Origin: a virus
Taxonomy: Duplodnaviria; Caudoviricetes
Length of the DNA stretch: 52,143 bases
IMG/VR virus record: IMGVR_UViG_3300032220_000084
Span: 1 to 52,143 of that record
Direction: 5' to 3' (one strand)
This document shows, one piece after another, positions 717-46,312 of the stretch; the stretch's first letter is position 1, and every line of letters begins with the position of its first letter. The translations under genes were made by a program, and so were the position numbers. The notes below the pieces were generated by a model. That model searched no databases. It was not told the origin of the DNA and saw only the letters and a program-made list of their open reading frames with translations.

Positions 717-815
717 GTAAGGAAACTGTAAGGTGGAAACGTTACCACTTTACACGAAACTTACAGTAAGAAATCAGTAAGGTGGAAACGTTACCACATT
801 ACACCAAACTTACAG
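717..815. repeat. Two tandem ~49-bp repeats, each centred on GTGGAAACGTTACCAC
   Basis: 728-766 and 777-815 read GTAAGGTGGAAACGTTACCAC(T/A)TTACAC(G/C)AAACTTACAG, 37/39 identical. Intergenic, just before terL. Confidence 0.95.
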
Positions 816-829
816 GATAGAAGGAAACT

Positions 830-2320
830 ATGAAACTTGAGCAGTTGATAGATAAATTAGAACCGCATGAGTATGAGAAGTTCATGGCTCAGGTGATGGA
901 GTATCGTGGGGCTGTGGAGAGGGAGAAGGCTCAAGATGGGTTTATGAATTATGTGAAGATGATGTGGCCCGGGTTCGTAAGTGGGAGGCATCATGCTTTG
1001 ATGGCGAAGAAGTTTGAGGATATTGCGAGCGGGAAGATTAAGAGGGCGATTATTAATATGCCGCCGCGACATACAAAATCTGAGTTTGCCTCGTATCTGT
1101 TGCCGAGTTGGTTTCTGGGAAAGTTTCCAAATAAGAAGGTGATTCAGTGTTCTAACACGGCGGATCTGGCTGTTGGGTTTGGACGTAAGGTTAGGAACTT
1201 AGTTGGATCGGAGCAGTATGCGAAGGTGTTTCCTAATGTGGCCTTGAGACAGGATAGTAAGGCAGCTGGTAGATGGGCTACTAATGGAGGTGGTGAGTAT
1301 TTTGCTATTGGTGTTGGGGGTACTGTGACGGGTAAGGGTGCGGATCTTTTGATTATTGACGATCCGCATTCGGAACAAGAGGCTGCTTTAGCTGCTGGCG
1401 ACCCCAGTGTTTACGATAAGGTTTATGAATGGTATACATCTGGCCCTCGGCAACGTTTACAGCCGGGCGGATCTATTGTGATAGTTATGACCAGATGGGG
1501 AGATAGGGATCTAACTGGTAGAGTTATTAAGGATGCAGCAGGTAGAGATAAAGGGGAAGAATGGGAGATTATTGAGCTGCCTGCTATCATGCCGTCAGGG
1601 AATCCTTTGTGGCCTGAGTTTTGGAGTATTGAGGAGCTGTCTGCTCTAAAGGAAGAGTTACCAGCAGCCAAGTGGAATGCGCAGTATCAGCAGAGTCCGA
1701 CAGGTGAGGAGGGTGCGATTGTTAAGCGCGAGTGGTGGAAGAGGTGGACTAAAGAGGATCCTCCTGCTTGTCAGTTCATTATTCAGAGTTGGGATACTGC
1801 TTTTACAAAGAGTGAGCGGAGTGACTATTCGGCTTGTACGACATGGGGTGTATTTTATTTGAATGAGAATTCAGAGGATGCAAACATTATTTTGTTGGAT
1901 GCGTTTAAGAAACGGATGGAGTTCCCTGAGTTAAAGGAGAAAGCTCATGCTAATTATTTGTATTGGGAGCCGGATGCGTTTGTGATTGAGGCGAAGGCGG
2001 CTGGTAGTCCTTTGATATTTGAGTTGAGGGCGATGGGGATTGTGGTGAGTGAATACACGCCTAGTCGGGGGAATGATAAGTTTGTGCGGATAAATTCAGT
2101 TGCTGATTTGTTTAGTTCGGGTAAAGTGTGGGCTCCGGAGACTCGTTGGGCTGATGAATTGATTGAAGAGATGGCTGCATTTCCGAATGCGCCGAATGAT
2201 GACTTGGTGGACTCGTCTACGCAGGCACTGATTAGATTTAGAAAAGGTGGTTTTTTAAGACTTGAAACCGATGAACGGGAAGAGCTTAAAAACTTTCGCA
2301 GAAAACACGCTTACTATTGA
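830..2320 (+). CDS. terL: Terminase large subunit
   Basis: Walker A-like NMPPRHTKS, Walker B LLIIDDP, and nuclease motifs SWDTA and DDLVDSSTQA. Confidence 0.95.
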   Translation: MKLEQLIDKLEPHEYEKFMAQVMEYRGAVEREKAQDGFMNYVKMMWPGFVSGRHHALMAKKFEDIASGKIKRAIINMPPRHTKSEFASYLLPSWFLGKFPNKKVIQCSNTADLAVGFGRKVRNLVGSEQYAKVFPNVALRQDSKAAGRWATNGGGEYFAIGVGGTVTGKGADLLIIDDPHSEQEAALAAGDPSVYDKVYEWYTSGPRQRLQPGGSIVIVMTRWGDRDLTGRVIKDAAGRDKGEEWEIIELPAIMPSGNPLWPEFWSIEELSALKEELPAAKWNAQYQQSPTGEEGAIVKREWWKRWTKEDPPACQFIIQSWDTAFTKSERSDYSACTTWGVFYLNENSEDANIILLDAFKKRMEFPELKEKAHANYLYWEPDAFVIEAKAAGSPLIFELRAMGIVVSEYTPSRGNDKFVRINSVADLFSSGKVWAPETRWADELIEEMAAFPNAPNDDLVDSSTQALIRFRKGGFLRLETDEREELKNFRRKHAYY

Positions 2321-2327
2321 GGTTTAA

Positions 2328-4724
2328 ATGGACATTGCAAAATCACTATACGCTGCTCCTCAAGGTCTTGAGGCTTTAGATGTGCCTGACTTGGAGATTG
2401 AAATTGAAGATCCTGAATCTGTAACCATTGGCGCTGGTGGATTGGAGATTACTTTAGAGCCTGAAACTGAGCGAGGCGAGGAGTTTGACTCTAATCTGGC
2501 TGAATTCATGGATGAAGGTGAATTAGAAAAAGTAGGGTCAGATATTGTTGAGATGGTTGAGGCCGATATTAACTCCCGTAAGGATTGGGTTGATATGTTG
2601 GTTAAGGGCTTAGAAGTTTTGGGTATGAAGTATGAGGAGAGGACTGAGCCGTGGAATGGGGCTTGTGGAGTTTTCTCTACTGTATTGACAGAAGCTGCTG
2701 TTAGGTTCCAGTCCGAGATGATTGTGGAAACGTTTCCAGCAGCGGGGCCGGTAAAGACTGAAATTATTGGCGCTGTTAATAAAATGAAAGAAGAAGCGGC
2801 TGAGAGGGTTCGGGCTGATATGAATTATCAGTTGACTGAGGCCATGCCTGAGTACAGACCTGAGCATGAACGTATGCTGTTTAACTTAGGTCTTTCTGGG
2901 TCAGCTTTTAAGAAGGTTTACTATGATCCCGCTTTGGGACGACAGACCTCTATATATATACCTGCTGAAGATGTGATTATTCCTTACGGATCTAGCGGGG
3001 CTAGGACGGCAGAGCGTGTTACTCATGTGATGCGCAAGACTAAAAATGATGTCAGGAAATTGCAGGCGGCTGGATTTTACAAAGATGTAGATTTGGGTGA
3101 GCCGGTAGCTATTCATACGGACGTAGAGAAAAAGAAAGCCGAAGAGCAGGGCTACTCTTTGACTGATGATGACCGGTATCAGATCTATGAGGTGCAGATA
3201 GATTATGAGATGCCCGGCTATGAAGATGATGATGAGATAGCTTTACCTTATATTGTTTCTATCGATGTGGGAACGGGTAAGGTTTTATCTATCTATCGTA
3301 ACTACGAAGAAGATGATGTTATTCGGTTGAAGAGACAGCACATGGTTCAGTATGACTATGTGCCGGGATTTGGTGCTTATGGTTTTGGATATATCCATTT
3401 GATTGGCGGATATGCAAGGGCTGGCACATCTTTGATTCGTCAGTTGATTGATGCGGGTACTTTGAGTAACTTGCCCGGCGGATTGAAGTCTCGCGGTCTA
3501 CGGGTTAAGGGTGACGACACTCCTATCTCGCCCGGAGAATTTAGAGATGTTGACGTACCGAGCGGGTCGATCAAAGACAACATCATGGCCTTGCCTTATA
3601 AGGAGCCAAGTCAGGTATTGGCTTTGTTGCTTGAGAAGATAACTGAAGAGGGTAGACGACTGGGATCTATTGCTGACATGAAGGTCAGTGATATGAGTGC
3701 TAATGCGCCGGTCGGAACTACACTGGCTATTCTTGAGAGGCAGTTAAAAACGATGTCTGCTGTGCAGGCGCGGGTTCACTTTTCGATGAAGCAGGAATTT
3801 AAGATCCTGAAGAACATCATCCGTGACTATACGCCTACAGAGTATGAGTACGATCCTGAGAGTGGAGATCGTAAGGCCAAGCAAGAAGACTATGACATGG
3901 TGGAAGTAATTCCAGTGTCAGATCCTAATGCTGCAACTATGGCGCAGCGGATTATGCAGTATCAAGCTGTTATCCAGTTGGCGCAGCAAGCTCCACAGAT
4001 CTATAACTTACCTCAGCTGCATCGTCAGATGATTGAAGTGTTGGGGGTTAAGAACGCAGATAAATTGGTGCCAACGAAGGACGATCAGAAGCCAAGAGAT
4101 CCTATTAGTGAGAACATGGCTTTCTTGAGAGGAGAGCCGACAAAGGCGTTCATCTATCAAGACCAAGATGCGCACATTGCAGCTCACCAATCGTTCATGC
4201 AAGATCCAATGATTGCGGCGACTATTGGACAAAATCCTATGGCGCAGCAGATGCAGGCAGCGATCATGGCGCACATTGCAGAACACTTGGCCTTTAAGTA
4301 TCGCAAGGATGTGGAAGAACAAGTTGGTGTTCCATTACCAAATCCTGATGCTGAGTTGCCAGAGGATGTTGAGGTTCAATTGTCTAGGTTGGTTTCTCAA
4401 GGTTCTAAGCAGTTGATGCAAAAGAACACGGCTGAAGCGCAACAAAAACAAGCTCAACAACAAGCTCAAGATCCGCTTATTCAGATGCAGCAGGCAGAGT
4501 TGCAGATTAAGCAGGCGGATGTGCAGCGCAAGACTCAGAAAGACCAGACCGATGCGCAGATTTCTATGCAGAAATTGCAGTTGGAGAAGCTGCGAATTGA
4601 AGCGGAGATTGAGAAAGAGTCAAAGCGTCTGCAATCTCAAGAATTGCAAACAAAGGCAAGGATTGAGGCGGATATGGTTAAGAACCAAATGGACGATATG
4701 TCGCGTAATAACGGAGGCCAGTAA
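2328..4724 (+). CDS. Portal protein
   Basis: 798 aa directly after terL. P22-like portal features (GSAFKKVYYD, YGFGY, Q-rich coiled-coil C-terminus). Confidence 0.9.
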   Translation: MDIAKSLYAAPQGLEALDVPDLEIEIEDPESVTIGAGGLEITLEPETERGEEFDSNLAEFMDEGELEKVGSDIVEMVEADINSRKDWVDMLVKGLEVLGMKYEERTEPWNGACGVFSTVLTEAAVRFQSEMIVETFPAAGPVKTEIIGAVNKMKEEAAERVRADMNYQLTEAMPEYRPEHERMLFNLGLSGSAFKKVYYDPALGRQTSIYIPAEDVIIPYGSSGARTAERVTHVMRKTKNDVRKLQAAGFYKDVDLGEPVAIHTDVEKKKAEEQGYSLTDDDRYQIYEVQIDYEMPGYEDDDEIALPYIVSIDVGTGKVLSIYRNYEEDDVIRLKRQHMVQYDYVPGFGAYGFGYIHLIGGYARAGTSLIRQLIDAGTLSNLPGGLKSRGLRVKGDDTPISPGEFRDVDVPSGSIKDNIMALPYKEPSQVLALLLEKITEEGRRLGSIADMKVSDMSANAPVGTTLAILERQLKTMSAVQARVHFSMKQEFKILKNIIRDYTPTEYEYDPESGDRKAKQEDYDMVEVIPVSDPNAATMAQRIMQYQAVIQLAQQAPQIYNLPQLHRQMIEVLGVKNADKLVPTKDDQKPRDPISENMAFLRGEPTKAFIYQDQDAHIAAHQSFMQDPMIAATIGQNPMAQQMQAAIMAHIAEHLAFKYRKDVEEQVGVPLPNPDAELPEDVEVQLSRLVSQGSKQLMQKNTAEAQQKQAQQQAQDPLIQMQQAELQIKQADVQRKTQKDQTDAQISMQKLQLEKLRIEAEIEKESKRLQSQELQTKARIEADMVKNQMDDMSRNNGGQ
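2725..2738. repeat. Dispersed palindrome copy TGGAAACGTTTCCA, inside portal
   Basis: Exact match to TGGWAACGTTWCCA. Confidence 0.9.
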
Positions 4725-5312: not shown

Positions 5313-5321
5313 GGGGCAGAT

Positions 5322-6275: not shown

Positions 6276-6277
6276 AA

Positions 6278-6736: not shown

Positions 6737-6756
6737 TTTTTTTTGGAGCTTAAAAC

Positions 6757-10837: not shown

Positions 10838-11152
10838 ATGGATCAGCCAATTGTAAAAAACTATTCTTTTACCCAAGGCGTTGGTAAAGACGGAATGCCA
10901 AAGTATTTCATTAATGGTAGTGAGATACAAGACAAGGCATCTTGGGATAGATTAAAAGCCAAGGCCGGTCAAGTGGTTGACAATAGTTTTGATGACATAG
11001 GTAATGCTATGTCTTCTGGAATGGACGATATGTCTGATCTGCGGCAAAAAGCACAAACCATTAAAAAAGCAAAAGGTGGAAGCGTTACCAGTGCATCCAA
11101 GCGAGCTGATGGCTGTGCCGTTAAAGGCAAGACTAAAGGCAGGATGATTTGA
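10838..11152 (+). CDS. Small protein with the shared C-terminal tag
   Basis: Ends KKAKGGSVTSASKRADGCAVKGKTKGRMI. Confidence 0.7.
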   Translation: MDQPIVKNYSFTQGVGKDGMPKYFINGSEIQDKASWDRLKAKAGQVVDNSFDDIGNAMSSGMDDMSDLRQKAQTIKKAKGGSVTSASKRADGCAVKGKTKGRMI

Positions 11153-11394: not shown

Positions 11395-11892
11395 ATGGCA
11401 CTTAGCTCATTCCAGCAAGCTTTTAAAGAAGCTCGCGCAAAAGGTGAAACAGAATTTGAATTTCCGCCAAATAGCGGAAAAATGTTTAACACCAAATACA
11501 AAGAAGAAGTTAAAACCTCAGCCAAGCCTGCTGCTTCTGCAAAAGATGCTTCTAACTACAGTAACGAAGGTCGTGGTTCTTCTGCCCCTGCAAAATCTTC
11601 AGCAATGCCTGACACCTATAGAGACTTAAGCGGAAAAGTTAAAGTTAAAGAACCAGTAAAGCCGCCTTCAGAGTATGAGCCCGGCCCTCAAAACATTAAA
11701 CGTAACTTGCAAAATGCGCCAAGCGACATTAGTGACCTTGTTTCCAGCCCTTTCCGAGCAATCCGTGAGGCTGGTAACCGTGGTAATCCTGATGCCCCCA
11801 AGAAAATGGCTTCAGGTGGTAACGTTTCCAGCGCCAGCAAACGTGCTGACGGAATTGCCCAAAAGGGCAAGACTCGTGGGAAAATGTGCTAA
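11395..11892 (+). CDS. Small protein with the shared C-terminal tag
   Basis: SFQQAFKEARAKG N-terminal motif. Ends KKMASGGNVSSASKRADGIAQKGKTRGKMC. Confidence 0.7.
   Translation: MALSSFQQAFKEARAKGETEFEFPPNSGKMFNTKYKEEVKTSAKPAASAKDASNYSNEGRGSSAPAKSSAMPDTYRDLSGKVKVKEPVKPPSEYEPGPQNIKRNLQNAPSDISDLVSSPFRAIREAGNRGNPDAPKKMASGGNVSSASKRADGIAQKGKTRGKMC
11817..11830. repeat. Dispersed palindrome copy TGGTAACGTTTCCA
   Basis: Exact match. Confidence 0.9.
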
Positions 11893-11894: not shown

Positions 11895-12296
11895 ATGCCT
11901 GCAACGTCAGCAAAACAAAAGAAATTCATGGATGCTGCGGCGCACAACCCAGCATTTGCGAAGAAGGCCGGTGTACCTGTAAAGGTTGCCAAAGAGTTTA
12001 GCAAGGCCAGCAAAGGCCAAACATACAAAGAGGGTGGCGAAATGAAAGAATCTAAAGCAATGGTTAAAAAAGAGATTGGCTTTATGAAAGCCAAGGGCGC
12101 TCCTAAGTCCATGATGAAACATGAGATGGCTGAGATGAAGGGCATGAAAAAAGGTGGAAACGTTACCACTACCAAAATGGGATCAGTTAAAACTGCTGCT
12201 CCTAGCCGCGATGGTATTGCTACTAAAGGCAAGACCAAAGGCACAAAGATTTCCATGCCCGGCAATCGTGGCTTGATGGGCGGCGGGAAGTGCTGA
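11895..12296 (+). CDS. Small K/M-rich basic protein
   Basis: MPATSAKQKKFMDAAAHNPAFAKK. Contains KKGG and DGIATKGKTKG. Confidence 0.7.
   Translation: MPATSAKQKKFMDAAAHNPAFAKKAGVPVKVAKEFSKASKGQTYKEGGEMKESKAMVKKEIGFMKAKGAPKSMMKHEMAEMKGMKKGGNVTTTKMGSVKTAAPSRDGIATKGKTKGTKISMPGNRGLMGGGKC
12155..12168. repeat. Dispersed palindrome copy TGGAAACGTTACCA
   Basis: Exact match. 12151-12170 is identical to the intergenic copy at 730-749. Confidence 0.9.
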
Positions 12297-12549: not shown

Positions 12550-13481
12550 GCTATACCACTGGCACCTCACTCTTCAACATGGAGTTCACGGAGATCGCTG
12601 AAGAGGCGTGGGAACGTGCTGGGCGTGAGATGCGCAGTGGCTATGACTTGCGCACAGCTCGCCGGTCAATGAACCTAATGACTATTGAGTGGGCAAATCG
12701 TGGCCTCAATATGTGGACGATTGAGGCTGGTTCTTTCCCGTTAACTCCCGGACTGAATACTTATCCACTGCCAAATGACACTATTGACCTGTTGGATCAT
12801 GTGATTCGCACCGGTGCAAATAGTTCAAGCACACAGGCTGACTTGACAATTTCACGGATTAGCGTTTCTACCTACGCAACTATTCCCAATAAATTGCAGC
12901 AGGCAAGACCTATTCAGGTATGGATTCAGAGATTGTCTGGTGAAACGAATCCAACTTCTTTAACTACAAGTGGAAGCGTTACCAGCACCGCCACCACAAT
13001 TACGTTAAGTTCGACAGATGGGCTTGCTTCTTCTGGCTACATTAAGCTGGATTCAGAGATCATTTACTACGGATACCTATCAGGCAATACCATTGGTGGA
13101 TGTTTCCGTGGACAGAACAACACTACAGCAGCCACTCATACAACGGCTACAGAGGTATTTGTTCCTCAGCTTCCAGCCGTAACGGTATGGCCTACACCGG
13201 ACAACTCTACGCCGTATGAGTTTGTCTACTACCGTATGCGCCGCATTCAAGATGCTGGTTCTGGTGTGCAGATTGCAGACATGAACTTTCGTTTTTTGCC
13301 GTGTGTAGTGTCTGGTTTGGCTTACTACATTGCCATGAAAGTGCCTGAATTGATGCCCCGTATGGATATGCTAAAGCAGGCATACAACGAACAATTTGAC
13401 TTGGCGGCAGGCGAAGATCACGAAAAAGCACCGCTGCGTTTTGTTCCGCGCCAGCAATTTATTGGTGGGAGCACAACCTAA
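12546..13481 (+). CDS. Putative head-tail adaptor / tail tubular protein
   Basis: IAEEAWERAG...ARRSMNLM..EWAN, VWPTPD and GLAYYIA are typical of podoviral adaptor proteins. Confidence 0.6.
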   Translation: MSYTTGTSLFNMEFTEIAEEAWERAGREMRSGYDLRTARRSMNLMTIEWANRGLNMWTIEAGSFPLTPGLNTYPLPNDTIDLLDHVIRTGANSSSTQADLTISRISVSTYATIPNKLQQARPIQVWIQRLSGETNPTSLTTSGSVTSTATTITLSSTDGLASSGYIKLDSEIIYYGYLSGNTIGGCFRGQNNTTAATHTTATEVFVPQLPAVTVWPTPDNSTPYEFVYYRMRRIQDAGSGVQIADMNFRFLPCVVSGLAYYIAMKVPELMPRMDMLKQAYNEQFDLAAGEDHEKAPLRFVPRQQFIGGSTT

Positions 13482-20846: not shown

Positions 20847-21512
20847 ATTGATCCTCTCAGCATTCTTTTTGCTGCCAATGCCTGTGTTTCTGCTATCAAG
20901 CAGGGATGCAAGCTGTATAAAGACGCTAAAACGTCTTTCATGGAAGTCAAAAAGACTGTTGATGAGGTTGCTTCAGATGTCAAGGCGGTCAGAGGATTCT
21001 GGGCAAAGCTCTTTGGAAACGTTACCACCCCCCAAGCCAAGCCTGTGGCGAAAAAGGAGGCCTACGTTGCCGTTGACGAAACCCAAGTCATGGCAGACAT
21101 CGTTGTCCAGCTATCCAAATTTTTCAAACTGCAAGAACAGCTTGCCGACCACATAAGGGAAGAGGAAGAAAAGAGCAAATCAGTCTACGACCCTGACGCT
21201 AACCTTATGGAAGCCGCCCTGAAGAGGGTAATGGCACAAGACCAAATGGCGTTGTTGGAGACTGAGATCAGAGAGGCAATGGTGTACGGCGCTCCCAAAG
21301 AGATGGGGGCTTTGTACTCAAAAGTGTTTGATATGCGGGATGTTATCAAGGTAGAGCAGGACAAAGCAAGGAAGAAGCGGGATGATGAATCATGGCAACG
21401 CAGGGAAGAGGAGCGGCTCCTAAGAGAAAGGCAGGCGTATCTGCTGGCGACTATCCTATTCCTCCTATATATGTGGTTGCTCCTCGGCCTCTTGCACAGG
21501 ATTGGGAGATAG
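20847..21512 (+). CDS. Coiled-coil protein with C-terminal TM helix (probable ATT start)
   Basis: The 20940 frame is open back to ATT 20847 (IDPLSILFAANACVSAIK...), 5 nt after GGAG. Confidence 0.6.
   Translation: MDPLSILFAANACVSAIKQGCKLYKDAKTSFMEVKKTVDEVASDVKAVRGFWAKLFGNVTTPQAKPVAKKEAYVAVDETQVMADIVVQLSKFFKLQEQLADHIREEEEKSKSVYDPDANLMEAALKRVMAQDQMALLETEIREAMVYGAPKEMGALYSKVFDMRDVIKVEQDKARKKRDDESWQRREEERLLRERQAYLLATILFLLYMWLLLGLLHRIGR
21014..21027. repeat. Dispersed palindrome copy TGGAAACGTTACCA
   Basis: Exact match. Confidence 0.9.
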
Positions 21513-33155: not shown

Positions 33156-36100
33156 ATGGCTCTCCAAACAGCAACTAATCCACAAACCGGCGAGCGCGTT
33201 GTTTTAATTGGCAACGAGTGGAAACCATTCCAGCAAACAGCCACAAACAAAGAAGGCGCAAAAGCTTATTTGGTAAATGGTAGTTGGGTTGTTGAGCCTG
33301 CTGCCGCCCCTGCCGCACCTAAACCAATCCCTGAGCGTACATACGGCGAAGCAGCTAAAGACATAGGCGCTAGTCTTACTTCTGGTCTTGGTTCGCTGGT
33401 TCAGTTGCCGGGTCAGTTGTATGGCCTAGCTACTGGAGACTTCTCTAAGACTGGTCTGCTGGCTGCTGGTGAAGATATACAGAAGTACGGCGAGGAAATG
33501 AAGTCTCCTGCGTTGAAGGCCAAAGAAGAGGCTAGGGCGCAGAAGATTCAAGAGGCAGAGAAGACTGGTCAGCTTGCCGCTGCTGGTACTGCTTTTGGCG
33601 AGACAGTAACAGACCCAGCACTATTGGTAGGCTTCTTGGTTGAGCAAGTGCCTAACCTTATTCCTGCACTGTTAACGGGTGGTGGTACTGCTGCGTTGAC
33701 TGCTAGTGGTATTGCTGCCAAGGAAGCTGCTGCGCTGGTTGCTAGTGGTGCTGCTAAGGAAGCTGCTGCCATTGCAGCTAAACAGATTGCCGCCAAGAAA
33801 GCTGGTGAGCTTGGCGCTAGAGCTGCTGTTGGTGTGGGCGCTGTTCAGCAGGGTGCTGACGTTGGTGCGGGCGCGTATGAAGATATTTACAAAGCTGCAA
33901 TAGCCAAGGGAATGCCCGAGGCTGAAGCTGCTTCTACGGCTTTGAATGCTGCGAGAGCTGCCGGTGCATCTGCCGCCGTTATCTCTTTGTTGGCTCAGAG
34001 ATTGCCCGGCGCACGGACGCTTGAAGAAACTTTTGCTGGTGTTAAGGGTACAACTGGTCGCATTTTTGGCGGTGTTAAAGGTGCTTTGGGCGAGTCTGCT
34101 GGTGAAGTTGTTGAAGAGGGCGGTGGCAAGTTTTCTCAGAATCTTGCTATGCGTGAGGTTAACCCTGAGCAAAGCCTTACCGAAGGTTTGGGTCAAGCTG
34201 CTGGTATGGCTGCTATTGGTGGCGGTGGTATGGGCGCTATTGCTGGTGCTGCTCGCCGTCCTGCCGAAGCACCAAGCGATACCGCTGGTATACAAGGCAC
34301 AGGTAATCCGTCTACAAATAGCCCAATTGTTAGCACAAGTAAAGTTAATATTGACGGCAAAGAGAGTGTCAAAACCACCAGACGGGATGGAAGTGTTGAG
34401 ATTGATGGCATCCAAGTCACTCCTCCTGATGTGGAAACGTTACCACCTGAGCCTCCTCCCGAGATTCCCCCAGAAACTCCTGCGGCAACAAAGCCTGCTG
34501 CGCCCCCACCACCTCCCGAAGCGCCAAAGGTTGAGTTCAAGCCAGCAGATGTTGCTGCTTTGGCTAATTACACAGAGGGTTTACCCGAGGAATCAACAGG
34601 CATATTTCAGCAAATTCAAAACAGAGACAGGGCTACCCCTCCTTCTATTAAGCAGATGCAGGGTTTGCGCACTGAGCCTGACTATGATGGATTAAAAGCC
34701 ACCCCTGACTTTGGTTCTGGTGCGCCTGTGGTCGTTAGCGACATCAGGATTCCCGAGAATCAAATGGGACGGCAAGATATTGCTACTGCCTCAGATAGAC
34801 GCAAAATACCTGTTCAGTATGCCGTTATAGATGCCAATGAGTTATTGGCCTCGCATACTGTCAGTGGTCAGACGAATCCCGAATATGGAAACGTTACCAC
34901 TCCGGCTATCCGTGCTGTGGCTGGAAACGGCAGGATTGCTGGATTGCAAGCATCCTATGCAGATAACTTTGCCGGTGATTACCGCGCAGCTATGCTGGCT
35001 GATAACCAGCACGGGGTTGACCCATCGGTGATTGAAGGCATACAGAATCCTGTATTGGTCAGGATCATGCCCAAGTCTTACATCACGCCTGACATTGGAG
35101 ATGTTTCCAATGTTGGTGTTGAGTTGAAGTTAAGCCCTGTTGAGAAGGCCAAGAATGACGGCAACCGAGTTGATCTAGGGTCGCTTAGTTTCAATGAAGA
35201 CGGCAGCATAAATATGCAGACTGTTAAGCAGTTTGTTCAGGGTATGCCAGAGACAGAGCTTGGCGAGCTGATGGACGAAGATGGGATGCCCACCAAGATA
35301 GCGATTGATCGTTTGAACAATGCTATTTTTTACAAGGCATATCAAAGCAAGCCTCTTCTGCGCTTATATGCGCAAGCTGCTGATGAGGAAGCAAAGACAA
35401 TTTTGCAGGGCTTGGCTAAGGCTGCTTCAAACGTTTCTCAGTTGGATGGCGCTGGTGAATACGACATTAGAAAGAACATCATTGATGCTGCTGAGTTGGC
35501 TGTCAATGCTCGCCGTCAAGGTATCAAGCTTAAAGATTTTGCAAGCCAAGGTCAGCTAGGTCTTGATCCAAACACAATGACCGTGTTGGAAATGTTTGCA
35601 GAAAATGCAAGATCGGGCAAGCGTATTGGTGAAATGCTTGGTGATTTGGCTGAAGCAGCATCTCAAGCAAATGATGCACAAGAATCAAATTTACTTGGTG
35701 AAGAATCAAAAGTACCTTTGTCTGATGTGTTTAAGGTATTGAAGCCAACGGCTGCGCCTGATCTTTTTACTCCGCCAAGCGAGACAAAGCCTACAAAGCC
35801 CACTTCGCCTGTAGATGTTCCAGAGCCAAAAGATTTTATAGCCAAGAAGTCACTGGTAGAGATTGCCAAAGAAATACATGGCATGACTGCTACTCAGCTT
35901 GCACAGTGGGCTGTTGACAATGCGCCTAACAGCGCAGCAAAAGCTATTGCAGAGAAGGTGTTGGTTCGCGTAAAAGAATTGGATGAAAGAGGATTCTTTA
36001 AGCAGCCTGTAAAGGTAATGAACAGGGATGATCTTACATTCAGAGGAAAATTTAACTACAACCCCGGAAAAGACTATCGTTATGGTTATTTCACATTTGC

Positions 36101-39100
36101 TGGACTGAAAAATGGTAAAGAGCATTCCCGCACTGGCACACGATATATAACCATATTGCATGAGCTATTGCATTCCGTTACCACTGCAACATTAGACCCA
36201 TCATTTTTGGGTGGAAAAAGCAAAGAGGCCAATGACTTGCAAGTTGTTCTTGATAAAGTCAAGAAACAAATAAAGGCAGATCAGGCGGCTGGCAGAACGC
36301 ATCCAATTATTGAGCGAATCAGGGTTAACAAAACCAATACGGTAAAAGACATTATGGAGTTGGTGTCATGGGGTTTAACAGACCCAGACTTCCAAGACTA
36401 CTTGTCTAAAGTAAAGGTGGGCAATACCAATGCTTTGACCCGTATGGTTGAGATATTTAGGAAGCTGCTGGGCTTGGATGCCAAGTATGAAACCGCACTT
36501 GATACAGTTGTCAGAACTGCCGACACTATTCTTGACACTCCCTTTGAGCAGATTGAAAAAGAACTTGGCCCAATTGGTTCTAAGAAGCCTGCCGCGCCGC
36601 CTGCTGCACCAGCAAAACCTGCCGCCAAGAATGCTCCGCCTAAATTAACCGCGCCTAAAGGGTTCAAGCTAAAAGAAGGCCGCAATGAGCAAGTTGTGCT
36701 TGCTGCGCGTGAGCTAAAGGCTGGAAACATTACCAAGCAACAGTATGATGAGTATGTAAATTACTACACCCCCATCGGAGAAATACTTGGCGACAAGCTA
36801 GAAGCTCCAATTAATGATGATTTAATGCGGTTAATCTTGGTAAACAAGATTCCTCAGAAAAAAGATCCAAAGCTTGTTAATGCTTCTGTTGAAGACGGCA
36901 CAAAGGTTGGTTTGCGAATGGACATCCCTGCGTTGGAATGGGGAAGAGATAACGGCGTTAATGGCAGCGTAGTGTCCATCCACGAAGGAAAGCCCGCAAC
37001 CAATGCTGCGGCTGGAAAGAATATCAGCTACAAGTCGGCTGGATTTTTAAAGAATGCTGTGTTCGCCATCCGCTCTGAAGAGAAAGCGTTTGGCATTGCT
37101 CAAATGAAAGAAGGGCGTGCAGGACAAAAATCACCGCAGCAGACCATTGAAGGTACTTGGGTCAACATGACTCCAGATGCAATCTTTAAGATGGTTAAGG
37201 AAAAGCTAAACGATCCTGCATGGTCGCAAGTTAGCCTTGATCCGTTGCGCCATTCATTCTTTTACGACAGATCAAACACCAAGCCTGTTGTATCTGCCGA
37301 TGAGGTCTTGCAAGTTGGTCGCTTTGTTTTGGCAAAGAATGTCAAGTATGCGCCTAGAGAAAAATTTCTCTATGAAAAACAGGGCGAAAAGCCAAGTTTC
37401 TTCAAAACAATGATGCCCAATCTTGGTTTTCAAAGATTGCCAAAAGACAGCAACCAAGTATATGAAGATAAAGGCGGAAAAGCTTTCCCTACATTTGAGA
37501 GAGGTGGTGTTCGCGTTGCATTAAGCAGCAATAACGTCTTGTACTTGGATGAAAAAAATAAAGTAAACGAAGGTTACGGCGAACCAGATGAAGTGATATT
37601 GAGATTTTTAGGAACAGATCCCAGTCAAAGACAAAAGGGTCTTGCTTCATCTGCTCTTAAAAACATCGTTGATGGCGCAGACCAATCTGGTGTAACGCTT
37701 TACATAGAGCCTGTAAGTCTTGATACGCAAGGGCTTTCAGATCAAGACTTGGTTAAGCTTTATAAAAAGTTTGGTTTTGAAGAAGAGGGCGGAAACAAAA
37801 TATTGGTTCGTAGACCCGCGGGCGAGGTGGCAGAAAAATCTGCTGAAGAAAGCTTAGGCGACAAGGTAAAAGCCAAGGTCACTACCAAGCTTCAGAAGAG
37901 ACAACCATTGAATCCACAAGACTTTGATGGTGTGTCTCCTGACTTTCTTGACAAAGCCAATCCCATCTTTGTGCCGCAGCACAAGACAATTATTCAGCGT
38001 CTTGAGGAGATGAGAGATCGCTTCTGGCAGCGTCTTGCACAAGGCATTGCCGACCAGTTCCGCACCATCAAAGAGTACAGCGAAGAGGCTTATATGCTGG
38101 CGCGAATGTCCAAGACTGTGGACGGCGCACTTGAAGGTCTAATGTTCTTTGGTCAAGTATTTAATGACGGTGGCGCATTGAATATCAAAGAAGGCACAAA
38201 AGGGTTGATTGAAGTATTAAAGCCTTTGGGCAATGAAGTCAGTCGTTACCAGATGTGGATTGCTTTGAGCCGCGAATCAGAGTTGCCACCAAACAAGAGA
38301 TCACAGATTGATAACTTGGATGAGTTGGTTGATCGTAAGGATGAGCTGATTGCTGGAGACATAGACGGCAAGCCACGGGAGCAAGTCTATAAAGCTGTGC
38401 GCACAGAGATGAATAAGCTGAATCGTTCTGTGCTGAAAGTGGCGCTGGATGCTGGTCTGATTGACTCTACGGCAAATGCTATTGATAGATTGAATGGTCG
38501 CATCCAAGACATTCAGAACAATGACAAGCTGTCTGATGCTAAGAAAGAAAAAGATATTGAGGAATTGGAAGCCGAGATTGCAGAGCTGGAGAAAAACCCA
38601 ATTGGCTATGAGCGTTTCATTGCTGACATCAACTACATTCCGTTCTATCGTGAGATGGAAGATGGTGATGTTTCCAAAGTAATGACTGCTTCCGGCCTGT
38701 CAAACCAGCAATTCTCTAAGGCACTTGAGGGTGGCGTGAGTCCGTTTGCCGATCTGATGGAAAACACATTGCGTAACTGGAGTCACATCCTGTCTGCGTC
38801 TATGAAGAACCAAGCTGCTGCCGCTACGCTGGCCGCTGCCGAGGGTCTTGGTGGTGCAGAAGCAAACCTAAAAGTGCCGTACTACATGATTGATGGCAAG
38901 GTTTACTACCGATCTAACGATGAGATGGTGGGTGATGGATCTGTTAAATCATGGATGACAACTGCGGGTAAAGGAACCATCAAGGTAATGGTCGAGGGTC
39001 AACCTGTCCACTACAACGTGCTTGATCCTTTGCTGCTTGATTCGATTGCTTCTATTGGATATATGGGGCCAAAGTCTAAATTCTTGGATGTGGCAAGAGG

Positions 39101-40697
39101 CTTTAAGAATGTGCTTCAGTTTGGTGTAACCATCTCTCCTGCATTCAAGGTAAACAACTTGATCCGCGACTCGGTTCAAGCTATGGCTGTCAGTGACTTG
39201 AAAAAGAATCCGTTTGCCAACGTGATTAACGGCTGGATATTGAGTGATAAAAACAATCCTGCTCATATATCTGCGTTGGCTGGCGGTGCGCTGTTTAACT
39301 TTGGCTCAATTGTTGAGGGCGACCAAGCTGCTTTAGTTAAGCGGCTGGTAAAGATGGGCGTGAAAGAAGAGCATATCCTCGACACCCCTGCAAAGATTAA
39401 GAATCAACTTAAAAAGGCGTGGGACAAGTACCAAGAGTTTGGCAATAAGTCTGAATCTGCAAACCGCATGGCCTTGTATCAGCAGATGGTTGACAAAGGT
39501 TACGGGCATCTTGAAGCATCCTTCTATGCTAGAGACCTGCTGGACTTCTCTATGCAGGGATCATGGCCTGCCTTCCGCCTATTGACTCAAGTTGTTCCCT
39601 TCTTGAATGCCCGTGTGCAAGGTCTGTACAAGCTGGGCAGAGATGGTGTTAATCCTACTGTGCGAGTGTTCTACAACACAATCACTGGCAAGCCTATTGA
39701 GCAGACAGACAGGCAGAAAGCCGAGTCCTTTGGAATCGTTACCAGTGCAGTTTGCCTTGCATCTTTGGCCTTGTACTTTGCATTCAAAGACGATGAAGAG
39801 TACAAGAAGCGTGACGATTGGGATAGGGATAACTTCTGGTGGTTCAGGTTGCCCGGAATGGACTATGCGTTGCGCATTCCTAAACCGTTTGAGATTGGTG
39901 CGTTTGGCACATTAGCAGAGCGTGTAGCAGAGCAGATCTTTGACCAAGGTGCAGAGGGTAAGCAGTTTGAGAAATCATTAAAGAACATGATTACCAACAC
40001 CTTTGCGGTTAACCTGCCTCAGTTTGTAAAACCTCTGGTGGATCTGTATGCCAACAAAGATTCATTCACTGGTGCGCCTATTGAATCTGCTGGCATGGAA
40101 AGATTGTCTAAGCAAGAACGTGCAACAGATACAACCAGTCCTTTGGCTATTGCCTTGGGTGGCTTGTCAAGTGTTGCTTTGCCGGGAGAGGGTATGTCTC
40201 CTGTGCAGATGGACTACGCTATCAAAGCTTACTTTGGTTGGCTGGGTGGCACGATTGCACACACATCGCACTATGCCGTCATGCCGTTTAAGAGTGGCGC
40301 ATATCCTGATACTAAGTGGATAGACAAGGTGAGCGTAGGACTTATCAAGTCTTTACCTGCAAACCAGTCAAGGTACGCTACAGCCTTCTATGAGAGCAAC
40401 AAAGATATTAGTCAAGCGTATGCTGATATGCGTCACTACGCTGAGATTGGTGACTCTGAAAAGGTCTTGAAGATTCTTGAAGAGAAGAGAGACAAGATAC
40501 AGCTCAACAGGTTCTATGACAAGACAGCCAAGAATATGTCTAAGGTCAGGCTACAGATCAGAGTGATTATGAATGACGAAACAATGAGCGGCGCTGCCAA
40601 GCGAGAAGAGATTGACCGCTTGAAAGAGATTATCTCCATGCTGGCAAAGCAGGCTGAAGATACTCGCAAGTCGTTAAAGGCCGCATCCGAAGAGTGA
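33156..40697 (+). CDS. Giant polyvalent internal virion protein (ddrB-ParB-like, HExxH metallopeptidase, GNAT, LPD38-like)
   Basis: QNRDR...AGNGRIAGL (ParB-like), ILHELLH, QRQKGLASSAL...LVKLYKKFGF (GNAT), and RDLLDFSMQG..PFLNARVQG..RIPKPFEIG (LPD38-like). Confidence 0.75.
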   Translation: MALQTATNPQTGERVVLIGNEWKPFQQTATNKEGAKAYLVNGSWVVEPAAAPAAPKPIPERTYGEAAKDIGASLTSGLGSLVQLPGQLYGLATGDFSKTGLLAAGEDIQKYGEEMKSPALKAKEEARAQKIQEAEKTGQLAAAGTAFGETVTDPALLVGFLVEQVPNLIPALLTGGGTAALTASGIAAKEAAALVASGAAKEAAAIAAKQIAAKKAGELGARAAVGVGAVQQGADVGAGAYEDIYKAAIAKGMPEAEAASTALNAARAAGASAAVISLLAQRLPGARTLEETFAGVKGTTGRIFGGVKGALGESAGEVVEEGGGKFSQNLAMREVNPEQSLTEGLGQAAGMAAIGGGGMGAIAGAARRPAEAPSDTAGIQGTGNPSTNSPIVSTSKVNIDGKESVKTTRRDGSVEIDGIQVTPPDVETLPPEPPPEIPPETPAATKPAAPPPPPEAPKVEFKPADVAALANYTEGLPEESTGIFQQIQNRDRATPPSIKQMQGLRTEPDYDGLKATPDFGSGAPVVVSDIRIPENQMGRQDIATASDRRKIPVQYAVIDANELLASHTVSGQTNPEYGNVTTPAIRAVAGNGRIAGLQASYADNFAGDYRAAMLADNQHGVDPSVIEGIQNPVLVRIMPKSYITPDIGDVSNVGVELKLSPVEKAKNDGNRVDLGSLSFNEDGSINMQTVKQFVQGMPETELGELMDEDGMPTKIAIDRLNNAIFYKAYQSKPLLRLYAQAADEEAKTILQGLAKAASNVSQLDGAGEYDIRKNIIDAAELAVNARRQGIKLKDFASQGQLGLDPNTMTVLEMFAENARSGKRIGEMLGDLAEAASQANDAQESNLLGEESKVPLSDVFKVLKPTAAPDLFTPPSETKPTKPTSPVDVPEPKDFIAKKSLVEIAKEIHGMTATQLAQWAVDNAPNSAAKAIAEKVLVRVKELDERGFFKQPVKVMNRDDLTFRGKFNYNPGKDYRYGYFTFAGLKNGKEHSRTGTRYITILHELLHSVTTATLDPSFLGGKSKEANDLQVVLDKVKKQIKADQAAGRTHPIIERIRVNKTNTVKDIMELVSWGLTDPDFQDYLSKVKVGNTNALTRMVEIFRKLLGLDAKYETALDTVVRTADTILDTPFEQIEKELGPIGSKKPAAPPAAPAKPAAKNAPPKLTAPKGFKLKEGRNEQVVLAARELKAGNITKQQYDEYVNYYTPIGEILGDKLEAPINDDLMRLILVNKIPQKKDPKLVNASVEDGTKVGLRMDIPALEWGRDNGVNGSVVSIHEGKPATNAAAGKNISYKSAGFLKNAVFAIRSEEKAFGIAQMKEGRAGQKSPQQTIEGTWVNMTPDAIFKMVKEKLNDPAWSQVSLDPLRHSFFYDRSNTKPVVSADEVLQVGRFVLAKNVKYAPREKFLYEKQGEKPSFFKTMMPNLGFQRLPKDSNQVYEDKGGKAFPTFERGGVRVALSSNNVLYLDEKNKVNEGYGEPDEVILRFLGTDPSQRQKGLASSALKNIVDGADQSGVTLYIEPVSLDTQGLSDQDLVKLYKKFGFEEEGGNKILVRRPAGEVAEKSAEESLGDKVKAKVTTKLQKRQPLNPQDFDGVSPDFLDKANPIFVPQHKTIIQRLEEMRDRFWQRLAQGIADQFRTIKEYSEEAYMLARMSKTVDGALEGLMFFGQVFNDGGALNIKEGTKGLIEVLKPLGNEVSRYQMWIALSRESELPPNKRSQIDNLDELVDRKDELIAGDIDGKPREQVYKAVRTEMNKLNRSVLKVALDAGLIDSTANAIDRLNGRIQDIQNNDKLSDAKKEKDIEELEAEIAELEKNPIGYERFIADINYIPFYREMEDGDVSKVMTASGLSNQQFSKALEGGVSPFADLMENTLRNWSHILSASMKNQAAAATLAAAEGLGGAEANLKVPYYMIDGKVYYRSNDEMVGDGSVKSWMTTAGKGTIKVMVEGQPVHYNVLDPLLLDSIASIGYMGPKSKFLDVARGFKNVLQFGVTISPAFKVNNLIRDSVQAMAVSDLKKNPFANVINGWILSDKNNPAHISALAGGALFNFGSIVEGDQAALVKRLVKMGVKEEHILDTPAKIKNQLKKAWDKYQEFGNKSESANRMALYQQMVDKGYGHLEASFYARDLLDFSMQGSWPAFRLLTQVVPFLNARVQGLYKLGRDGVNPTVRVFYNTITGKPIEQTDRQKAESFGIVTSAVCLASLALYFAFKDDEEYKKRDDWDRDNFWWFRLPGMDYALRIPKPFEIGAFGTLAERVAEQIFDQGAEGKQFEKSLKNMITNTFAVNLPQFVKPLVDLYANKDSFTGAPIESAGMERLSKQERATDTTSPLAIALGGLSSVALPGEGMSPVQMDYAIKAYFGWLGGTIAHTSHYAVMPFKSGAYPDTKWIDKVSVGLIKSLPANQSRYATAFYESNKDISQAYADMRHYAEIGDSEKVLKILEEKRDKIQLNRFYDKTAKNMSKVRLQIRVIMNDETMSGAAKREEIDRLKEIISMLAKQAEDTRKSLKAASEE
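34432..34445. repeat. Dispersed palindrome copy TGGAAACGTTACCA
   Basis: Exact match, with G/C flanks. Confidence 0.9.
34886..34899. repeat. Dispersed palindrome copy TGGAAACGTTACCA
   Basis: Exact match. Confidence 0.9.
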
Positions 40698-41848: not shown

Positions 41849-42042
41849 CGCTTCACCCTTTCTTTCATCATTTCTTCTGCTCTATCAAAAGCCCTAGATG
41901 CTGCCGTTGCGCTATGTACATCGGGGCCTACGCTCATCAAAGCAAAAGCCGCAAACCAATCCATTAAGGTAATCTCTTGGATGGATATAGGCTCTTCTTT
42001 GCTGACCAAGGCTTCGATACCTTCAGGTTTTTTTCTTGCCAT
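41845..42042 (-). CDS. Small phage protein, divergent paralogue of the same family
   Basis: ITLMDWFAAFALM...AFDRAEEMM. Confidence 0.6.
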   Translation of the reverse strand: MARKKPEGIEALVSKEEPISIQEITLMDWFAAFALMSVGPDVHSATAASRAFDRAEEMMKERVKR

Positions 42043-42340
42043 CTTTGCCCCCTACCGATTGATTGAGAATCATCGCTTCAATCTGTCGAGACAGAAGTTC
42101 GGCAATAGATTCACCTCCAATAGAAATACTGCTGGCGCTATCGTTTTCTTTGACCACAGAGATGGCATCTCGCAGCCCCTTGTTGTAGCCGCCATTAAAT
42201 ACATCGTCACCTTCCACAATTAAAGTGATTGCGTCACGCACAAGAGCCGTAGCCTTGCGCTGACCCGCAGCCTCTTTGAGCTTCAGGTAAATGTCTTCTC
42301 TCAGGTGTACTGAGTAAGGTACTAGCCGTTTCGTTTCCAT
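42023..42340 (-). CDS. Ribbon-helix-helix DNA-binding protein
   Basis: YSVHLREDIYLKLKEAA...ATALVRDAI fits the Arc/CopG-type RHH pattern. Confidence 0.6.
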   Translation of the reverse strand: METKRLVPYSVHLREDIYLKLKEAAGQRKATALVRDAITLIVEGDDVFNGGYNKGLRDAISVVKENDSASSISIGGESIAELLSRQIEAMILNQSVGGKDGKKKT

Positions 42341-45447: not shown

Positions 45448-45480
45448 TTATCTATCCTCCTGTCTGTTGATTGGCATTGT

Positions 45481-45509
45481 AATGTACCTGATGAATTGTG
45501 TGGTGTCAA
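45481..45509 (-). promoter_or_regulatory. Sigma70-like leftward promoter
   Basis: Minus strand reads TTGACA (45509-45504), 17 bp, TACATT (45486-45481). Confidence 0.65.
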
Positions 45510-45543
45510 GCGGTATGTTATAACTGGTACATTATTTAAACTC

Positions 45544-45557
45544 TGGAAACGTTACCA
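45544..45557. promoter_or_regulatory. Palindrome TGGAAACGTTACCA 2 nt before the glycosyltransferase start (candidate operator)
   Basis: Exact match, in the divergent intergenic region. Confidence 0.65.
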
Positions 45558-45559
45558 CT

Positions 45560-46312
45560 ATGAATCCTCCTTTAATGTCTGTGATGATGATTGCCTACAA
45601 CAATGTCCAGTTCTTAAAAGCTGCTGTGGATAGCGTGATTGCGCAGACTTATCCGCATTGGGAGCTGGTCATTAATGATGACTGTTCGACTGATGGGACT
45701 TACGAGCTGGCGCAGAAGCTTGCTGAAAAAGATGAGCGCATTAGGGTTTATCAGAATGAACGTAACCTAAAGACGCCGGGCAACAGAGCTGCTGCCATGA
45801 AGCATATCAAGGGTGATTTTGTGGGTCATTTGGACGCAGACGATATGCTTTATCCCCACGCTTTGGCTGCACAGTTGCAGTTTCTCCTTAAGAATCAAGA
45901 TGTTGCGTTGGTTTATTCCGACAATTCTGAGATGGGCGTGGATGGTAACGTTACCGCTTATACGGCCTCAAGGAACTATGAGACTAATTTGGCTTGGTTT
46001 GGTTGGAAACATTTTGGTGTTTACCGAATGTCTGTGTATCGTGAGATTGAGGGATATAACACCAAGTTAACTCAGGGTTGTGAAGATGGAGATTTGTTCA
46101 TGCAGATAGCCGAGAAGTACAAGTTTGCTAGAAACCCAAATGTTCTGTACTACTACCGATCACACTCAACGAACAACAGCCCCAAGAACTACCAGTGTGA
46201 TACCTGTCCTGATCGGCCTGTGTGTAACTACATCAGGGTGTGGACAAAACACGCAAACTATGACATTCATACCATGAAACCAATTGAGGTAGCCGATGCG
46301 CCGAGCGAATAG
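45560..46312 (+). CDS. Family 2 glycosyltransferase
   Basis: SVMMIAYN, SVIAQTYPHWELVINDDCSTDGT, HLDADD and CEDGDL. Confidence 0.9.
   Translation: MNPPLMSVMMIAYNNVQFLKAAVDSVIAQTYPHWELVINDDCSTDGTYELAQKLAEKDERIRVYQNERNLKTPGNRAAAMKHIKGDFVGHLDADDMLYPHALAAQLQFLLKNQDVALVYSDNSEMGVDGNVTAYTASRNYETNLAWFGWKHFGVYRMSVYREIEGYNTKLTQGCEDGDLFMQIAEKYKFARNPNVLYYYRSHSTNNSPKNYQCDTCPDRPVCNYIRVWTKHANYDIHTMKPIEVADAPSE

Follow-up and report, generated by a model that had tools for sequence, protein, structure and literature searches.

The window analysed here is the whole of the IMG/VR virus record IMGVR_UViG_3300032220_000084, 52,143 bp of a tailed phage with an estimated completeness of 83%. It opens within a gene resembling terS, for the small terminase subunit, followed by a small gene for a winged helix-turn-helix (wHTH) protein similar to the DNA-binding domain of LexA, by terL, and by the portal, head and tail genes of a late module, a gene for a 2513-aa polyvalent protein, a leftward early module and, beyond a divergent intergenic region, a set of rightward genes (Table 1). 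Dispersed over the window is a 14-bp palindrome, TGGWAACGTTWCCA, in 13 exact and six one-mismatch copies. We propose, with a probability of about 0.5, that this palindrome is the operator of the wHTH protein, that it was multiplied genome-wide and that its use is most likely transcriptional. An initial annotation, made from the sequence alone, had taken the copies for a candidate undescribed system of protein-binding sites; the observation itself was confirmed, and its interpretation was partly supported.

The palindrome in the window and in related phages

All 13 exact copies listed in the initial annotation were recovered at their positions, and its five one-mismatch and six two-mismatch copies are real as well; a sixth one-mismatch copy (39731) and five further two-mismatch copies had been missed. 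No exact copy arose in 100 dinucleotide-preserving shuffles, and copies with up to two mismatches number 30, against a shuffle mean of 0.52 (maximum 3). An unbiased census of all inverted repeats with 7-bp arms returned the motif as the only palindrome family with more than six copies, with counts of 13-14 in the window (G000) and in the relatives G003 and G004, and of 5-10 in G006, G016 and G019. Three of the exact copies are intergenic (734, 783 and 45544) and ten lie in coding sequence. A codon-preserving shuffle had been named beforehand as a test that could overturn the claim, and it does not refute it: in 500 within-gene shuffles of synonymous codons, the mean number of coding exact copies was 0.116 (maximum 2) against 10 observed, and that of coding one-mismatch copies 0.91 (maximum 4) against six observed.

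As had been noted, the coding copies are read in two frames, seven of the ten as xxT-GGW-AAC-GTT-WCC-Axx, which gives G-N-V-T/S, and three as xTG-GWA-ACG-TTW-CCA, which gives V-E/V-T-L/F-P. Within the proteome, nine of the ten GNV[TS] peptides and all three [LMV][EV]T[LF]P peptides are spelled by the motif or by a one-mismatch copy. Since these peptides are over-used and nearly always written in motif codons, the DNA word has left its mark on the choice of codons as well as of amino acids. Regulatory sites are normally excluded from coding sequence; here, a binding motif appears to have overridden both choices in at least nine unrelated genes, and selection keeps it across relatives. Many of the sites come in close pairs, 49-830 bp apart (734/783, 11817/12155, 16503/16731, 34432/34886 and 45544/45943).

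The sites are dyad-symmetric, and the two W positions give them no consistent orientation. Among the 55 exact sites of six genomes, 33 are mixed, 7 A-type and 15 T-type at these positions, against 26.9, 10.0 and 18.1 expected under independence, orthologous sites not being independent counts in this tally; the earlier reading that the W positions vary independently is thus borne out. LacI-family operators are short palindromes with a central CG, and the motif centre, AACGTT, is likewise a short palindrome with a central CG and zero spacing, a likeness that is a resemblance only. In the literature searched, the motif string has no relevant occurrence, the sole match being an unrelated poxvirus preprint. 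Taken with the conservation described below, the codon shuffles make it well supported, at the level of sequence, that the array is selected as DNA and consists of sites for a dimeric DNA-binding protein.

Between open reading frames (ORFs) lie 12 of the 55 exact copies. They occur in the gap between the wHTH gene and terL (window and G004) and in divergent regions (45544 in the window, 16282 in G003, 46809 in G019). In G003, G004 and G006, a copy fills exactly the 14-bp gap between the convergent stop codons of the polyvalent-protein gene and of the last early-operon gene, and G003 and G004 carry another downstream of the helicase gene, at a second convergent junction. The divergent region of the window contains a sigma-70-like promoter on the minus strand (45509-45481, 10/12 matches), and site 45544 lies ~35 bp from the -35 element of this leftward early promoter. 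With copies placed at the boundaries of transcription units, a symmetric bound repressor, roadblock or insulator fits better than a packaging signal.

A scan of related phages, as the initial annotation had suggested, found the motif amplified in five further whole genomes, with 12 copies in G003, 11 in G004 (TerL 97% identical), 8 in G019 (GC 53%), 6 in G006 and 5 in G016 (TerL 74%, GC 40%). Fragmentary records hold 6 (G001), 4 (G002), 2 (G005) and 2 (G020) copies. The reversed pattern, that is, the motif read backwards, has no copy in any motif-bearing record. Among 15 further terL relatives, the motif is present in 4 and has no copy in 11. When the proteins of the window were scored for presence in five motif-bearing and five other genomes, none was exclusive to the motif-bearing ones.

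The motif is better conserved than its flanks. In the cases that could be aligned, sites are fully identical in 3 of 5 in G004, 3 of 4 in G003, 1 of 4 in G006 and 1 of 1 in G016, against 9.3%, 8.0%, 6.3% and 1.7% of control 14-mers, respectively; in the motif-free relative G009 the motif positions are identical in neither of two. Sites 25393, 30242, 34432 and 45544 and the portal site (2725) are shared at orthologous positions, and 16503 and 16731 are private. At the portal site, the copy is exact in the G016 ortholog and has one mismatch in those of G004 and G019; in five motif-free relatives, M/L-S/E-T-F-P is written there with other codons. In the Pro-rich linker of the polyvalent protein, VETLPP sites number one in the window, three in each of G003 and G004 and two in G019. 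The proposed check on synonymous conservation and site turnover thus came out in favour of the DNA word, as motif codons are kept at the portal site and some sites are shared and others private.

Apart from this, the hexamer AACGTT is avoided in several relatives (G010, G014, G013 and G016; loci L229-L235, L225-L228 and L210-L212). It has 0 copies against 14.0 expected in G010, 2 against 15.2 in G014, 6 against 14.4 in G013 and 7 against 15.9 in G016, where five of the seven are inside the motif. This looks like restriction-site avoidance. The lineages avoiding AACGTT most have putative operators with a spacer between AAC and GTT, and host restriction of the hexamer may have driven the operator change. 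Finally, k-mers enriched in L158/L162 and in L134/L136 were considered as operators and rejected, as they correspond to a ribosome-binding site and spacer before early-gene start codons. In L158 (678-6192) and L134 (4751-7825), this long conserved sequence is found in 6-11 copies directly before early-gene starts and is non-palindromic.

A LexA-like protein beside terL and its palindromes

Against the Pfam family LexA_DNA_bind (PF01726), the wHTH protein of the window scores 20.9-22.4 bits, below the cut-off of 23.7, and the orthologs of G016 (33.8 bits) and G019 (24.6 bits) exceed it. A profile of the family searched against PDB chains finds LexA (E 2.2e-6) across the whole DNA-binding domain, with a conserved core of ~75 residues. 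In the AF2 model, the predicted local distance difference test (pLDDT) is above 90 in the core and 85-93 over residues 41-100. All Foldseek matches at ranks 1-9 are LexA, with a root-mean-square deviation (rmsd) of 1.0-1.4 A over 65-68 columns, and the top match is the LexA-DNA complex 3jsp (1.0 A over 67 columns). The protein is predicted, on this model, to have a three-helix winged-helix fold superposable on the N-terminal domain of LexA.

As judged from its domain content, the protein, typically about 90-120 aa long, is not a LexA. In the nine other genomes having the gene, the ORF is 77-123 aa long, ends right after the wing and contains no peptidase domain; given that an S24 peptidase/dimerisation domain is missing, RecA-triggered self-cleavage is impossible. 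At least 120 metagenomic homologs were retrieved, of 89-135 aa among those listed and most with a precomputed PF01726 match; those listed are mostly unnamed or automatically labelled LexA. The family is abundant in freshwater metagenomes, is now annotated as hypothetical or mislabelled as LexA, and would gain a likely role.

The wHTH ortholog is directly upstream of terL in nine of ten other genomes. It follows a gene for a 220-310-aa protein that matches phrog_51, the terminase small subunit, in all four lineages tested, so the wHTH gene is an extra gene in the terminase operon and not terS itself. The terS-like protein of G004 (241 aa) matches phrog_51 (E 1.5e-9) and, weakly, Pfam Terminase_2; the terS fragment of the window (2..412) had no family match in profile searches. 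For the cultured phages HTVC027P and DSL-LC04, the wHTH gene is absent from the ~9-kb stretch searched around terL, and a census of 50 kb of each gave no palindrome family with more than 4 copies. A tblastn search with the wHTH core against cultured phages gave no match.

In the window, motif copies lie 24 and 73 bp after the wHTH stop codon, before terL. Folded as RNA, this intergenic region reaches -37.3 kcal/mol (z -5.88), and its two copies pair with each other. More generally, a palindrome of the form xxxxAAC-N0-6-GTTxxxx was found within -500/+250 bp of the wHTH gene at 58 of 83 loci, against 159 of 967 control windows, which were drawn from the same 83 loci, many of them close relatives and not independent trials. 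AAC ranked first of the 64 cores tested, with 58 loci, the runner-up having 35. Lineages share the AAC/GTT core and differ in the outer four bases and the spacer, in at least 15 combinations. With spacer 0, the outer bases are TGGW, CATA, CCGA, TCTA, CTAT or TGTA; spacer 1 is represented by CTAGAAC-g-GTTCTAG, spacer 2 by GGGTAAC-ta-, TTGGAAC-tt- and GTGTAAC-ta-, and spacers 3-5 by CTGTAAC- and CATTAAC-. The wHTH proteins are 40-60% identical among the whole genomes compared. At every motif-bearing locus compared, the amplified motif is within ~310 bp of the wHTH gene, which comes there in six recognition-helix variants. In G014 and G009, where further genes intervene between terS and the wHTH gene, the palindrome remains next to the latter, as it does in the window and G004, whose sites are downstream of the gene. 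Of four readers suggested by the initial annotation, the LexA-type helix-turn-helix protein is thus singled out by the lineage-specific palindrome that flanks its gene.

Two relatives have multiplied a palindrome of their own. G014 has a dispersed 14-bp palindrome with five exact and four one-mismatch copies, against 0 and 0.08 expected, and G011 has ~4-7 copies of another. The clade as a whole thus has local operators, and particular lineages have multiplied theirs across the genome, most strongly in the case of the present motif.

Some details of this neighbourhood stand on their own. In G019 (43848-43902, L215), upstream of the terS-like gene, there are CTGTAAC-t-GTTACAC and CTGTAAC-acct-GTTACAC besides the amplified motif upstream of the wHTH gene, and two extra small genes lie between the wHTH gene and terL. 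In the window, the two-mismatch copy at 258-271 is read as L-E-T-L-P in the C-terminal tail of the terS-like product, and the corresponding tail in G016 contains an exact copy (V-V-T-L-P); the window copy may descend from an ancestral operator that lay upstream of the wHTH gene and has since decayed. Positions 47-695 and 689-1489 are matched by a metagenomic contig from another sample (run X2, record 9) in which ~520 further bases lie between the two matches; this suggests, for a related strain, an insertion close to the 3' end of the wHTH gene (690-695), upstream of sites 734 and 783.

Proposed readers and uses of the sites

From the position of the gene and the fold of its product, we infer binding of the sites by a wHTH dimer and an effect of this binding on transcription. 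Encoded between terS and terL, the wHTH protein would read the palindrome with two protomers, one per half-site. Its primary sites would be the two extended copies in the wHTH-terL gap and the one in the divergent early promoter region (45544), through which it may regulate itself, control terL, packaging and late genes, and control early transcription. The operator would then have been multiplied to ~19 good copies, mostly in coding sequence, in two tolerant frames, with selection retaining the copies. Protein bound at the sites might act as a symmetric roadblock or insulator, both where operons begin or end and within long ones. Intragenic copies could be auxiliary sites of one of three kinds, namely roadblocks or insulators, looping partners (an option raised by the many close pairs) or a sink that titrates the protein as genomes replicate. 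The available portion of one source reports that LexA domains change their motif widely, with 17 motifs that are palindromes of different spacing (PMC8565304), which makes the lineage diversification seen here plausible for a LexA fold.

Several points weigh against the wHTH protein as reader or against a transcriptional use, in addition to the kinship among the 83 loci. The protein is without the dimerisation domain of LexA, and a predicted homodimer of two copies scored 0.01 against a mark of 0.42, a result that gives no support for dimerisation either way. AAC-GTT spacers of 0-5 bp are hard to fit to one rigid dimer geometry. At 25 of the 83 loci there is no palindrome of the searched form. 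The recognition helix does not correspond one-to-one with the motif: G016, L032 and L184 have helices of the other clade together with the amplified motif, and L184 is one helix residue apart from G013, whose palindrome is of the CTGTAAC type. In identity matrices, wHTH, TerS and TerL share one phylogeny, which cannot separate the wHTH protein from TerS or from inheritance linked to the host. Nor does the gene always come with dispersal, since G009 has it with only two local-type copies. No sigma-70-like promoter was found in 1-1200, including beside sites 734 and 783, and it would seem expensive for a phage to block transcription within its own late operon. Also, in the available portion of their paper, the authors who described similar repeats in Cluster O mycobacteriophages judged a transcriptional role unlikely (PMC4351075).

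It is unlikely that the palindrome is instead a packaging signal, read by TerS or by the wHTH protein as a specificity subunit, with the copy at terS/terL as a pac-type site and the dispersed copies as extra loading sites on concatemers. The position would be suitable, as headful phages have their pac sites within or close to terS, the wHTH gene is inside the terminase operon between the phrog_51 terS-like gene and terL in every genome examined, the palindrome is at or just past the terS 3' end in G010, G011, G016 and G019, and the window has two tandem extended copies directly before terL. However, ~19 cleavable initiation sites per genome would be expected to fragment concatemers, and in G014, G009, G004 and the window the palindrome follows the wHTH gene and not terS. 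Copies at divergent promoter regions and between convergent stops suggest transcription-unit boundaries, and the fold of the wHTH protein is that of a repressor DNA-binding domain. Four DNA runs of assembled contigs, aligned to 1-20000, gave no molecule ends, a feature that contigs would not reveal in any case.

Equally improbable is a reader supplied by the host, either a LacI-family protein or the host LexA, whose sites the phages would use as decoys, for hijacked regulation or for silencing. A host protein would account for the occurrence of the motif in lineages with strongly differing wHTH helices and a GC content of 40-53%, and for its patchiness among terL relatives (4 of 15 records); the central CG dyad with zero spacing resembles LacI operators. 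What this explanation leaves aside is that the amplified motif is always the wHTH-adjacent palindrome and that, in other lineages, AAC...GTT palindromes with 1-5 bp spacers occupy the same place. Such spacers do not fit a LacI-type reading. A LacI reader had been among the initial suggestions and would need to come from the host, since the LacI helix-turn-helix (PF00356) is phage-encoded in none of five motif-bearing genomes, in a search whose control was positive in 10 of 14 reference genomes. Regarding host LexA, no LexA motif quoted in the available portion of PMC8565304 is the same as the palindrome described here.

Two other phage proteins had been put forward, and we regard either as very unlikely to be the reader. 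The ribbon-helix-helix (RHH)-like protein is conserved in nine of ten other genomes, yet its gene has no adjacent site, with no copy of fewer than two mismatches within 1 kb, and its similarity tracks phylogeny and not motif class. The ddrB-ParB domain belongs to the polyvalent protein, which is well conserved in all five motif-bearing genomes compared and whose gene holds two exact and two one-mismatch copies in the window and up to three exact ones in relatives. This protein is, however, equally conserved in the motif-free G009, and in relatives with local palindromes it is covered to 1-6% or missing; G014, with a dispersed palindrome of its own, has hardly any of it. A ParB-type reading would also call for a ParA partner (PF01656), found in none of five genomes, and the segregation role once suggested for the array is for the same reason unlikely.

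Least likely of all is an element without a protein reader, that is, an RNA or DNA structure, or a word that restriction-modification or DNA hypermodification centred on AACGTT targets or leaves behind: the pairing of the two intergenic copies as RNA (z -5.88) favours a structure and counts against a protein site there, the avoidance of AACGTT in relatives (0 copies against 14 in G010, 2 against 15 in G014) indicates restriction-type pressure on the hexamer, and genes for two GT2 glycosyltransferases and a PAPS-reductase-like protein are present in the window, but a single 14-bp copy is too short for a stable hairpin and its commonest form is non-complementary at the W positions, the 14-bp word is enriched, which is the opposite of an avoidance signature, five of the seven AACGTT of G016 are inside the motif, and the PAPS-reductase gene is absent from G004, G016 and G019.

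The lifestyle of the phage bears on how the wHTH operator reading compares with known systems. Tyrosine integrase, serine recombinase and a ParA-type ATPase (PF01656) were each found in none of five genomes per search, with positive controls detected and with four 100%-complete records among the genomes searched. Cultured relatives carry their own DNA polymerase, primase and helicase. On these gene contents the phage looks virulent, a difference from the stoperator phages that also speaks against a role in partition. By TerL, the closest cultured phages are DSL-LC04 and 023Pt_psg01 (57% identity), followed by the pelagiphages HTVC027P and HTVC023P (52-53%); megablast of 20 kb of the window against cultured phages gave no DNA-level match. 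More than 590 terL relatives are found among uncultivated viral contigs, and the 20 runs listed with window sequence, all of them contig sets and six of them RNA, are labelled freshwater or lake metagenomes. Two capsid-gene relatives bear on the lytic inference: L268 (CP070693.1) is inside a 1.12-Mb contig labelled as a Dehalococcoidia chromosome, and L269 (JASGKM010000021.1) is close to one end of a contig of 466 kb that carries the label Pseudomonas sp.; they may be prophages, misassemblies or artefacts of binning. A host assignment from capsid relatives was tried and abandoned, as the 55 loci lie in metagenome-assembled genomes of many phyla, mostly on phage-sized contigs, and were read as mis-binned phage DNA.

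Among dispersed operators, the stoperators of Cluster A mycobacteriophages are understood best. These asymmetric sites follow the direction of transcription, are recognised by a temperate phage's immunity repressor and act as roadblocks; some are intragenic, and subclusters differ in consensus. Shared with them are the many dispersed operator copies, some in genes, and a consensus that differs among lineages. The sites described here differ in being symmetric, in belonging to phages with no integrase, resolvase or ParA (0/5 each) and in having a candidate reader in the terminase operon. The conserved inverted repeats of phiC31 and the C1 operators of P1 are sites at promoters of temperate phages; they too are more than a dozen sites over the genome for one phage regulator, whereas the sites here are mostly inside structural genes of a lytic-looking phage. 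With LexA and its SOS boxes (3jsp, 1lea), the wHTH protein shares the winged-helix fold and a detectable sequence homology, and its presumed sites are likewise palindromic and vary in motif and spacing by lineage; unlike LexA, it has no S24 domain, is encoded by a phage gene beside terL and would have ~19 sites in 52 kb, mostly intragenic. From parS/ParB systems the phages differ in that no ParA was found (0/5) and that their sole ParB-like domain is the ddrB-ParB module of the 2513-aa protein. LacI operators resemble the motif in the central-CG palindrome, in contrast to the lineage variants with 1-5 bp spacers, and no LacI helix-turn-helix is encoded by these phages.

The nearest published case is that of Cluster O mycobacteriophages (Corndog and relatives), for which the available portion of the paper describes a 17-bp palindrome with 7-bp arms and a 3-bp spacer in 34 copies, taken by its authors to be sites for a dimeric regulator whose identity and purpose were unknown to them (PMC4351075). 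In both cases an inverted repeat occurs in many copies genome-wide, between and inside genes, and single base changes remove sites; the Cluster O repeat is reported in that portion to be absent from the host genomes checked. The two differ in placement, as 24 of the 34 Cluster O sites are intergenic or near 5' ends according to the same text, whereas here 10 of 13 are well inside genes and have left an amino-acid imprint. They also differ in that no reader is singled out in the text available for Cluster O, whereas here one candidate stands out by position across lineages and the motif diversifies. The claim that the system is undescribed holds for the motif string in the literature searched and not for the phenomenon, which has published precedents (PMC4351075). 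Dispersed phage operator palindromes are already known, and what is unusual here is the minimal LexA-domain candidate reader in the terminase operon, the mostly intragenic placement with its imprint on protein sequence, the lytic look and the rapid diversification of the motif over a large clade of uncultivated freshwater phages.

A fuller scenario, which we put forward tentatively and consider doubtful as a whole, is that a widespread and apparently lytic freshwater clade has a rapidly evolving minimal-LexA operator that was, in some lineages, multiplied in structural genes, where it would have remodelled peptides such as GNVT/S and VETLP and would serve as roadblocks or for timing titrated by replication. 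It would be a stoperator-like system that arose independently and outside lysogeny, its changes of spacing possibly driven by restriction. If the wHTH protein reads the sites, it would be a compact and tractable protein-operator pair with many natural specificity variants, a test case for dispersed operators outside lysogeny and a possible explanation of the unexplained Cluster O palindromes.

Feature coordinates and minor observations

The coordinates of the sites, of the genes and of the intergenic regions discussed are collected in Table 1.

Table 1. Palindrome sites, genes and intergenic regions of the window (a dot marks a feature without strand)
Feature	Coordinates	Strand	Remark
Exact site, intergenic	734..747	.	
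Exact site, intergenic	783..796	.	
Exact site, portal gene, VETFPA	2725..2738	.	
One-mismatch site, GGSVTS	11077..11090	.	
Exact site, GGNVSS	11817..11830	.	
Exact site, GGNVTT	12155..12168	.	G003 exact at orthologous position
One-mismatch site, SGSVTS	12971..12984	.	G006 exact at orthologous position
Exact site, TGNVTS	16503..16516	.	This genome only
Exact site, TGNVSN	16731..16744	.	This genome only
Exact site, FGNVTT	21014..21027	.	
Exact site, VVTLPS	25393..25406	.	14/14 bases same in G003, G006
One-mismatch site, AGNVSV	26221..26234	.	
Exact site, SGNVTS	30242..30255	.	Same bases in G003, G004
Exact site, VETLPP, Pro-rich linker of 2513-aa polyvalent protein	34432..34445	.	
Exact site, YGNVTT	34886..34899	.	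G006 copy at orthologous position
One-mismatch site, AGNITK	36722..36735	.	Identical one-mismatch form in G003, G004, G006
One-mismatch site, FGIVTS	39731..39744	.	Absent from the initial annotation
Exact site, intergenic	45544..45557	.	Ends 2 bp before GT2 ATG; same bases in G003, G004
One-mismatch site, DGNVTA	45943..45956	.	G003 exact at orthologous position
Two-mismatch sites of the initial annotation	258, 1116, 23417, 35096, 41427, 49065		
Two-mismatch sites newly added	33219, 35587, 38663, 43529, 47699		
terS-like gene, 3' part	2..412	+	Truncated by contig start; 70% identity to C-terminus of G004 241-aa protein
Stand-alone LexA-DNA-binding-domain-like winged-helix protein	381..710	+	Start uncertain (381 or 435); ORF open from 243
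wHTH-terL intergenic region	711..829	.	Two 49-bp direct repeats, each with ~26-bp near-palindrome centred on motif
terL	830..2320	+	phrog_38, E 2.2e-108
Portal gene	2328-4724	+	Late module
Major head protein	7364-8275	+	Late module
Tail-fibre and virion proteins		+	Late module
2513-aa polyvalent protein	33156-40697	+	ddrB-ParB (E 8.7e-12) and LPD38 domains
Leftward early module	40.7-45.4 kb	-	PAPS-reductase-like protein, endonuclease VII, ERF, PD-(D/E)XK nuclease
RHH-like protein	42023..42340	-	Rival candidate reader; no Pfam or PHROG match
Divergent intergenic region, leftward early operon/rightward GT2 gene	45448..45559	.	
Rightward genes	from 45560	+	Include two GT2 glycosyltransferases, HNH endonuclease

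Three consecutive small genes (10838-11152, 11395-11892 and 11886-12296) have in common a Gly-rich peptide that surrounds the motif, K-G-G-S/N-V-T/S-S-A-S-K-R-A-D-G; they look like paralogs, and comparable repeats occur in relatives. A longer ORF on the opposite strand (11729-12325) is probably spurious. The terL gene of G019 (39830-42202, L214/L215) encodes 790 aa, against about 496-502, with its homology split between residues 1-225 and 515-790; the insert of ~290 aa is possibly an intein or a homing-endonuclease domain.

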